DNA of 50,755 nt from a virus (IMGVR_UViG_2908959467_000003:1-50755), one strand, 5' to 3'; counted from the first letter of the stretch, positions 12,771 to 13,503 are shown. The notes: generated from the sequence alone by a model not told the origin. Numbers and translations: made by a program.

Positions 12771-13271
12771 TTATTCGCCCCCGTTATCGCAAGGTTCCTT
12801 CCGGTGGAAGTAATTCCAACCATTCCACTTCGCCAACTGGTTACCGCTACCAACAGGCATACGGTTTGGATAACCGGACTTACATTTAGCGGCTTTTGCT
12901 CTGTCCATTGCAGACAGTTTGACGAGTCGCTCTTTCCCGTATCTGGCAGTGGTTATAAGTTTTGCTGGCGCTTCCAGCGCATAATCCGGAGCAATGCGGC
13001 AGGCAAGGTTGAAAATGACGGCATTGATGGCGTTATTTGATAAACCGTGCTCATCGCCCTGATCCGGAGCGACATCTGCATCAGCAAAAATGTAGCCAAC
13101 GTTGATACCAGGTGACGCATCACCGCCAAGCCATTCAGCCATCATCATTTCAAGGTCGTTGACGCCGTCTTCCATAGACTGCGGTTCGACATCGGTTAAC
13201 GTGGCATTTGATGCCACACCGAGCTTACGTAATGCCGCAAGAACTAAATCACCCTTCGTTGTCAGGTTCAT
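12771..13271 (-). CDS. Tail accessory factor, P22 gp4-like (166 aa)
   Basis: [33 protein letters not shown].. resembles recalled gp4; start taken at the internal Met (13271) rather than the QS-repeat extension. Confidence 0.75.
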
Positions 13272-13503
13272 CTGCTGCCGCCTTAGGTTTTCGACCAGGC
13301 TTTTTACGCTGTTTTTCTTCTGGCTCTGGCTCTGGCTCTGGCTCTGGCTCTGGCTCTGCAACATCCTTCAGAAGATCATCAGGATGTGCAAACCAGCCAG
13401 CATCCAGATATTCCTGAAGCTCTTCGGCTTTCACGATTTCAAAGTCGTATCCAACGCCTTTCCATTTCTTCATGTCGCCATGACGAAAGATCATGTGTGT
13501 CAT
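13249..13503 (-). CDS. Small acidic protein with (EP)6 repeat (84 aa), unknown function
   Basis: ATG at 13503 with GGAG 7 nt upstream, just after the coat-gene terminator; contains the hexanucleotide repeat; not recalled in P22 at this position. Confidence 0.4.
13321..13356. repeat. Perfect hexanucleotide tandem repeat (TGGCTC)x6
   Basis: Read directly: tggctc x6; encodes EPEPEP.. on the minus strand. Confidence 0.95.

Follow-up and report, generated by a model that had tools for sequence, protein, structure and literature searches.

At issue at this locus is whether a small ORF lying between the coat and gp4 genes of a P22-like phage, and containing a perfect hexanucleotide repeat, is a real gene, to which family it belongs, and what the repeat means for its product. 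The window analysed here is the whole stretch of viral DNA (IMGVR_UViG_2908959467_000003), 50,755 nucleotides in length. It contains a P22-like morphogenesis operon on the minus strand, transcribed in the order portal (16357–18522), scaffold (15432–16343), coat, small ORF, gp4, gp10 (11352–12770) and needle (10504–11352), with the gp14, gp7 and gp20 genes following the needle gene. The P22-type coat protein gene occupies 13547–14842 (minus strand; Pfam P22_CoatProtein, E 2e-162), and the gp4 head–tail adaptor gene, encoding 166 aa, occupies 12771–13271 (minus strand; Pfam P22_Tail-4, E 2e-58). Separately, the interval from scaffold to coat contains an HNH_3 homing endonuclease gene (14910–15431; Pfam E 4e-22, phrog_99 E 1e-50) in the opposite orientation, on the plus strand. 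Phage Dewey has this gene; APC_JM3.2 and two E. coli prophages lack it and have the scaffold stop directly against the coat start. The gene resembles a mobile insertion in the late operon.

A small ORF behind the coat hairpin

The small ORF runs on the minus strand from an ATG at 13503–13501 to a stop at 13251–13249, and a Shine–Dalgarno GGAG, read from the sequence at 13510–13513 (minus strand), stands 6 nt 5′ of the ATG. Its product of 84 aa consists of 49 residues, an (EP)6 tract and 23 further residues, with a pI of 4.74 and 22 D+E versus 13 K+R. The original prediction had described an acidic 84-aa ORF with a ribosome-binding site at 13249–13503, and every coordinate proves correct on the minus strand. 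Just 3′ of the coat stop (13549–13547), RNA folding places a hairpin at 13514–13540 (minus strand) with a GC-rich 8-bp stem, a UUCG loop and a U-run, the stem being followed by UUUUUAUCU. The centroid energy of the hairpin amounts to −14.4 kcal/mol, with a z-score of −2.35. A simple consensus terminator scan of the window does not list this hairpin; the equivalent site is annotated as a stem_loop in the P22 record and as the 't coat' terminator in the Sf6 record. It would thus be a partial terminator or an mRNA-stabilising stem-loop. The placement of the ORF 3′ of this hairpin and U-run, with its 3′ end inside gp4, is likewise borne out: the Pfam P22_Tail-4 match begins at residue 2 of the protein initiated at ATG 13271, which marks this codon as the true gp4 start, and the overlap between the two genes is therefore 23 nt (13249–13271).

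The description of the ORF as an extra gene does not stand, since P22 carries the homologous orf69 in the equivalent slot overlapping gene 4, and Sf6 has its gene 6 there. Residues 1–82 of the small-ORF product align to positions 1–72 of the 72-position profile of phrog_1175 (E 5.3e-37), which P22 orf69 matches with E 4.5e-31, and direct pairwise BLASTP between the two proteins gives E 2e-9 at 36% identity. Like the small ORF, P22 orf69 (P22gp06, NP_059631; 69 aa) follows the coat stem-loop, and it overlaps gene 4 by 17 nt. Both proteins share the N-domain motifs ELxEY..GW..HP..LL and the tail motif GRKPKA, whereas the linker of P22 orf69 is formed by nine non-repetitive residues (PVEADDVKP) in the place where the small ORF has the (EP)n microsatellite. 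Through synteny, PHROG membership and pairwise BLASTP, the small ORF is thus linked to phage P22 orf69 and identified by sequence comparison as its ortholog. The literature searched yielded no function for P22 orf69, the matches to the name 'ORF69' being unrelated genes. Sf6 gene 6 and HK620 hkbT resemble the small ORF in position, lying behind the 't coat' terminator and running into the gp4 homolog, and in ending with a basic KRGRK patch and then an acidic tail; they nevertheless belong to another family (phrog_3251), with no detectable similarity to the small ORF and no repeat.

The gene has 389 homologs; in E. coli genomes RefSeq places a 'hypothetical protein' at this position. P22, the relatives P0123 and P0127 and eight species genomes all have the coat, ORF and gp4 genes in this order; the arrangement extends to divergent orthologs in Klebsiella, Citrobacter, Kluyvera, Yersinia, Buttiauxella and Rahnella, and also to a 46%-identical relative. 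In most relatives examined the stop falls 14–26 nt inside gp4; three of the eight species genomes (Citrobacter wls619, Kluyvera and an Enterobacteriaceae MAG) have no overlap, the ORF there stopping 3 nt short of gp4. Comparison across these genomes establishes the orf69 family, at the level of sequence, as a small late gene of P22-like Enterobacterales phages situated between the coat 3′ hairpin and gp4. A tblastn search with the N-terminal domain against 50,697 phage records recovers only eight close relatives and misses P22, and a profile search of a 5.8-billion-protein set adds almost no further diversity.

A longer variant (phrog_3769; for example in E. coli CFSAN064035) occupies the equivalent slot with a homologous N-terminal domain, an (EP)1–4 linker, the same gp4 overlap and a C-terminal tail identical to that of the small ORF. 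It differs in size, reaching 201 aa through a 98-residue WDGH domain (PF25311, E 1e-39) inserted between the N-terminal domain and the linker. Since some E. coli alleles add WDGH upstream of the same linker and tail, the family is modular. The WDGH allele is located at 1648–2253 of locus L083 (E. coli CFSAN064035) and in rows H120–H131 of the complete-genome sample; in RefSeq the annotation starts at an internal Met and so covers its C-terminal part only. Nothing relevant on the WDGH domain was found in the literature searched.

Selection on the small frame and the start of gp4

Across 29 distinct alleles of the N-terminal domain, pN/pS is 0.096 in the small-ORF frame versus 2.3 and 1.2 in the other two frames, and third codon positions hold 16 of the 27 segregating sites. 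The gene is intact in 84 of the 86 loci checked. One of the two exceptions is L083, which was scored as non-intact because the fixed-offset check does not fit the longer WDGH form. The other, L064 (IMGVR_UViG_2684622552_000004, about 2030–2290), carries a nonsense codon (TGG→TAG at codon 14, W14) together with an intact (EP)7 tract and an intact gp4, and an orf69 homolog can evidently be lost in a resident prophage. For the C-terminal tail the ratio is about 0.7, with too few substitutions for a selection test, and the overlapping ribosome-binding site and start of gp4 may be what keeps the tail conserved. The substitution pattern shows that the small ORF is a real gene under purifying selection.

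The overlap with gp4 bears on a different reading, in which the ORF is mainly a translational-coupling or spacing device for gp4 downstream of the coat hairpin and its peptide is incidental. Such a device would account for the position of the stop 14–26 nt inside gp4 in most relatives, for the conservation of the tail at the DNA level, and for the arrangement in which the tail's K-A codons supply the gp4 Shine–Dalgarno AAGG (13284–13281) and the tail contains the gp4 start. It fits poorly with strong purifying selection on the protein sequence of the N-terminal domain, with invariant residues that persist down to 37–46% identity and with a confidently predicted fold, and the overlap itself is missing in the Citrobacter wls619, Kluyvera and Enterobacteriaceae MAG genomes. 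A mere coupling device is accordingly quite improbable as the main role of the ORF.

Another reading assigns the repeat to gp4 itself, as an (SQ)6 N-terminal extension of a long gp4 starting at ATG 13364, and makes the small ORF spurious. The corresponding ORF (12771–13364) is open, its frame stays open through the tract in 75 of 75 scorable loci, and a long gp4 is annotated in PQ850600 (Dewey CDS0008) and in NC_019501/JF974339 (IME10 gene 4). Against it, relative L035 has two TAG stops in the gp4 frame and an open small-ORF frame, and the L035 residues whose codons produce these TAGs are matched elsewhere in the family, by E-L-E units in 10 of 145 proteins and by KAVAD alleles in 3 of 145. 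Moreover, the Pfam model and P22 gp4 both begin at the MNLTTKG/MQIKTKG methionine, selection upstream of 13364 is seen in the small-ORF frame only, and RefSeq has a 501-nt gp4 plus a separate hypothetical protein. The start at 13364, which is not conserved and whose frame is interrupted by the two TAG stops in L035, was rejected, and a long gp4 encoding the repeat is very improbable. The Dewey and IME10 records thus carry a spurious (SQ)n extension on gp4 and omit the orf69 homolog. A programmed frameshift into the gp4 frame through the repeat was also rejected, there being no slippery site and the frame being closed in some alleles.

Copy number of the hexamer tract

Within this gene, the (GAGCCA)6 microsatellite occupies exactly 13356→13321 on the minus strand and encodes (EP)6 as codons 50–61, so that the six perfect repeats predicted here are present as described. 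Tandem Repeats Finder reports it at 13319–13358 with period 6, 6.7 copies and 100% matches, and the chance expectation for (GAGCCA)6 is 0.00 matches over 100 shuffles. Two other repeats lie in the window. Inside a minus-strand ORF of 296 aa (30010–30900), positions 30420–30514 contain two clusters of perfect 11-bp direct repeats (TGGACAACCGT and CGTTGGACAAC), which look like iterons in a putative lambda-O-type replication initiator gene, an arrangement that appears ordinary for lambdoid phages. Inside a plus-strand ORF (34327–35349), whose 340-aa product is rich in Glu, Ala, Lys and Arg and looks like a coiled coil, a degenerate period-6 repeat at 34893–34976 has 14 copies with 63% matches; it is compositional and not a clean microsatellite.

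Comparison of related prophages reveals that the copy number of the GAGCCA unit is variable. Homologs range from 76 to 98 aa, mostly in 2-aa steps, with nearly invariant flanks and a differing number of dipeptide units. Tracts contain 4–14 pure units in 83 loci from IMG/VR viral contigs and phage genomes. The gene is present in 216 of 5426 complete E. coli genomes, and match spans in a spread sample of such genomes imply 1–19 units, always in multiples of 6 nt; the EP tract is absent from P22 orf69 and from the Citrobacter NCU1 prophage, which brings the overall range to 0–19 units, always in frame. Length differs even between very close relatives: copy numbers disagree in 13 of 18 locus pairs with identical 800-bp flanks, the largest gap being 7 units, and in 7 of 10 pairs with identical 3-kb flanks. 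One E. coli genome has 13 units despite 100% identity over 241–501 bp around the tract, and another has 18 units. When 13 kb is compared, the complete E. coli genomes contain no near-identical prophage, the best match being 97–98% identical. These comparisons of aligned loci demonstrate that length change in the tract far outpaces substitution in its flanks.

Sequencing or assembly artefacts hardly deserve credence as a source of these differences. Many of the loci do come from short-read metagenome or draft assemblies; however, the tracts measure 12–114 nt, below typical read length, the differences are always multiples of 6 nt, and they also occur in finished E. coli chromosomes and isolated phage genomes.

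The tract is a perfect head-to-tail array whose unit is a multiple of three and whose copy number is polymorphic among close relatives, and it qualifies as a coding microsatellite or VNTR. Six-base coding VNTRs are used in MLVA typing of enteric bacteria, and some reside in prophages, such as STTR6 in Gifsy-1. The EP tract resembles them in being a hexanucleotide repeat with a copy number that differs between close strains; unlike them, it sits in a gene of the P22-like morphogenesis operon and recurs across genera. One phage record marks a repeat_region at the tract, and no paper on it was found in the literature searched.

In DNA terms, GAGCCA makes up 593 of the 660 units; GAACCA accounts for 35, all but one of them in three loci, and the Yersinia and Klebsiella arrays consist of GAGCCT. 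Arrays are therefore homogeneous within a lineage and different between lineages, which points to concerted evolution driven by slippage; had only the amino acids been selected, such lineage-specific homogeneous arrays would not be expected. The small ORF is best explained as an orf69 ortholog with a slippage-driven, tolerated in-frame length polymorphism, and this is probably the correct account. Replication slippage, or unequal exchange, would add or remove whole 6-nt units, a change in copy number that cannot shift the reading frame; the frame would never be lost and the downstream gp4 translation signals would stay untouched. Because the 6-nt unit keeps the frame and spares the gp4 signals, length changes would be tolerated. 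The proposal that slippage varies linker length without inactivating the gene agrees with the 0–19 units of the relatives, the frame that is always kept and the large majority of intact loci. The spacer would accordingly be a flexible or polyproline-II-like linker with tolerated length polymorphism rather than a switch. Since lengths spread over 0–19 units, spacer length appears weakly constrained, and since the EP tract is missing in P22 orf69 and the Citrobacter ortholog, the family can do without the spacer.

EP tracts that are long and pure persist in seven genera, which could mean that the spacer is selected for and not merely tolerated. On this basis the tract may be viewed as an adaptive tuning or contingency locus, in which a variable spacer changes the reach between an N-terminal domain anchored at the head or neck and the basic tail and lets a phage population vary heritably and reversibly in some assembly or packaging property. 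At least seven genera with divergent flanks retain long pure arrays, the tract evolves at great speed, and linker and tail stay in place beneath the inserted WDGH domain, where copy number is variable too. On the other hand, the range is broad with no preferred length seen, the spacer is wholly missing in P22 and Citrobacter NCU1, interrupted alleles with ES, EQ, ET, EL or DP units persist, a self-perpetuating microsatellite stays pure without selection, and no phenotype is on record for any family member. Adaptive tuning is, on balance, rather unlikely, and tolerated slippage remains the preferred account.

Protein architecture and its implications

The orf69-family product encoded here has three parts. 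The N-terminal domain (codons 1–48; 13360–13503, minus strand), delimited by AlphaFold2, pN/pS and invariant columns, is predicted from a 14-sequence alignment to form a β-hairpin from residues 2–8 and 19–25 followed by a helix at residues 26–34, and it ends in an invariant GW..HPD motif. Block-mean pLDDT is 77–93 over residues 1–40 and falls to 52–59 from residue 49 on, for which reason residues 49–84 are predicted to be disordered. The spacer comprises 15 residues and is purely acidic. The C-terminal tail (13249–13320, minus strand), read from the sequence as EE plus 21 residues and the stop, has a pI of 9.8 and consists of a basic patch followed by an acidic end. A second type of in-frame length change is seen in the E. 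coli homolog P0003 (93 aa), where a 13-residue tandem duplication ends the N-terminal domain.

Pfam and NCBIfam searches with the product return only low-complexity matches (PARP, TonB and SucB), which were rejected as compositional. Specifically, the PARP match scores 17 bits against a cut-off of 100, and the TonB match scores 12 bits against a 315-bit cut-off and covers the EP/KP segment only. Some homologs are labelled dihydrolipoamide acetyltransferase; no such Pfam domain is present, the NCBIfam SucB score is 8.7 against a 423-bit cut-off, and the label is attributable to linker-like composition. The Glu-Pro repeat with its adjoining basic Pro/Lys segment resembles the (EP)n...(KP)n spacer of TonB, and the repeat also recalls the trypanosome procyclin EP, a likeness that accounts for the weak low-complexity matches. 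There is no homology to either, the small-ORF product having no transmembrane anchor, TonB C-domain or signal peptide. Glu-Pro and Pro-Lys segments are expected to be extended and polyproline-II-like.

The N-terminal domain resembles a module of homing endonucleases. A phmmer search of 1.84 billion representative proteins matches residues 12–46 to modules in GIY-YIG/HNH endonucleases with library-wide E values from 5e-7 to 8e-4; these modules are repeated 4–6 times, in non-catalytic regions. The module (..K.I..eELQ.YLD.GW..G) follows the same strand-helix-GW pattern as residues 19–38 of the small-ORF product, and hhalign between the N-terminal domain and the module gives 96% probability over 20 columns, a partly circular comparison in that the modules were found with the query. 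The small-ORF product differs in having one module copy, no nuclease domain and a longer hairpin loop. Within the endonucleases, 4–6 tandem copies of the ~35-residue module 'iWIN.g...K.I..eELQ.YLD.GW..G' are observed in P0129, P0132, P0134, P0136–P0140 and P0142–P0144. No Pfam family covers the module and no structure of it has been solved, and the literature searched held nothing relevant on the YLDxGW motif; presumably it is a DNA-binding repeat.

Several further candidates were tried for the product. The small-ORF tail KKPGRKPK is without the GRP core of the AT-hook (PF02178), to which Pfam finds no match, and the hook was rejected for this protein; the tail of a distant homolog, RRGRPPK, is a near-canonical AT-hook (E 0.047, 14 bits, below the 17.4-bit cut-off). 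An ETS-domain profile match (E 0.008, 18 residues) is too short to use, and fold searches found no match. A search of PDB chains with P22 orf69 and with the family profile gives no match, though it would miss a disordered or low-copy protein, and this weakly suggests that the protein is not an ordered virion component. In lambda, the gene between the major capsid gene and the first head–tail joining gene encodes gpFI, a small two-part protein with a flexible charged linker that is not a virion component and assists packaging; its likeness to the small ORF lies in gene position only.

A tentative role, possible though on the doubtful side, is accessory and non-structural: the protein would associate with DNA and assist late head completion or packaging. 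Its N-terminal domain would act as a single copy of the strand-helix-GW module that recurs in the putative DNA-binding parts of homing endonucleases, and its tail, with the basic PGRKPK, would make an AT-hook-like minor-groove contact. A bolder proposal, itself unlikely, is that selection maintains (EP)n as a rapidly mutating 'molecular ruler' within a protein that serves many P22-like phages as a late accessory factor, with orf69 as the prototype. Here the N-terminal domain would dock on some part of the head, neck or packaging machinery and DNA would be contacted by the basic tail, with the acidic Glu-Pro rod setting the reach between them or imitating one strand of DNA. Through slippage, phage populations would acquire reversible but inherited differences in some packaging or ejection property. 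If true, the ruler would provide a first function for orf69 and a non-frameshifting contingency locus in a phage morphogenesis operon.

The orf69 family was already known as a hypothetical protein, and in-frame repeat polymorphism in disordered linkers is familiar, so current understanding is not overturned. P22 is a textbook assembly system, and the orf69 family emerges as a conserved gene that is under purifying selection and whose position is kept across Enterobacterales. Its build is modular, with a folded N-terminal domain, an optional WDGH domain, an acidic spacer and a basic tail, and several phage records mis-annotate the orf69 homolog as an N-terminal extension of gp4. The spacer is among the fastest-changing sites of these P22-like prophages, and the tract is usable as an in-frame VNTR marker that separates near-identical ones. 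For the family itself, the natural series of 0–19 units amounts to a free experiment on linker-length tolerance.
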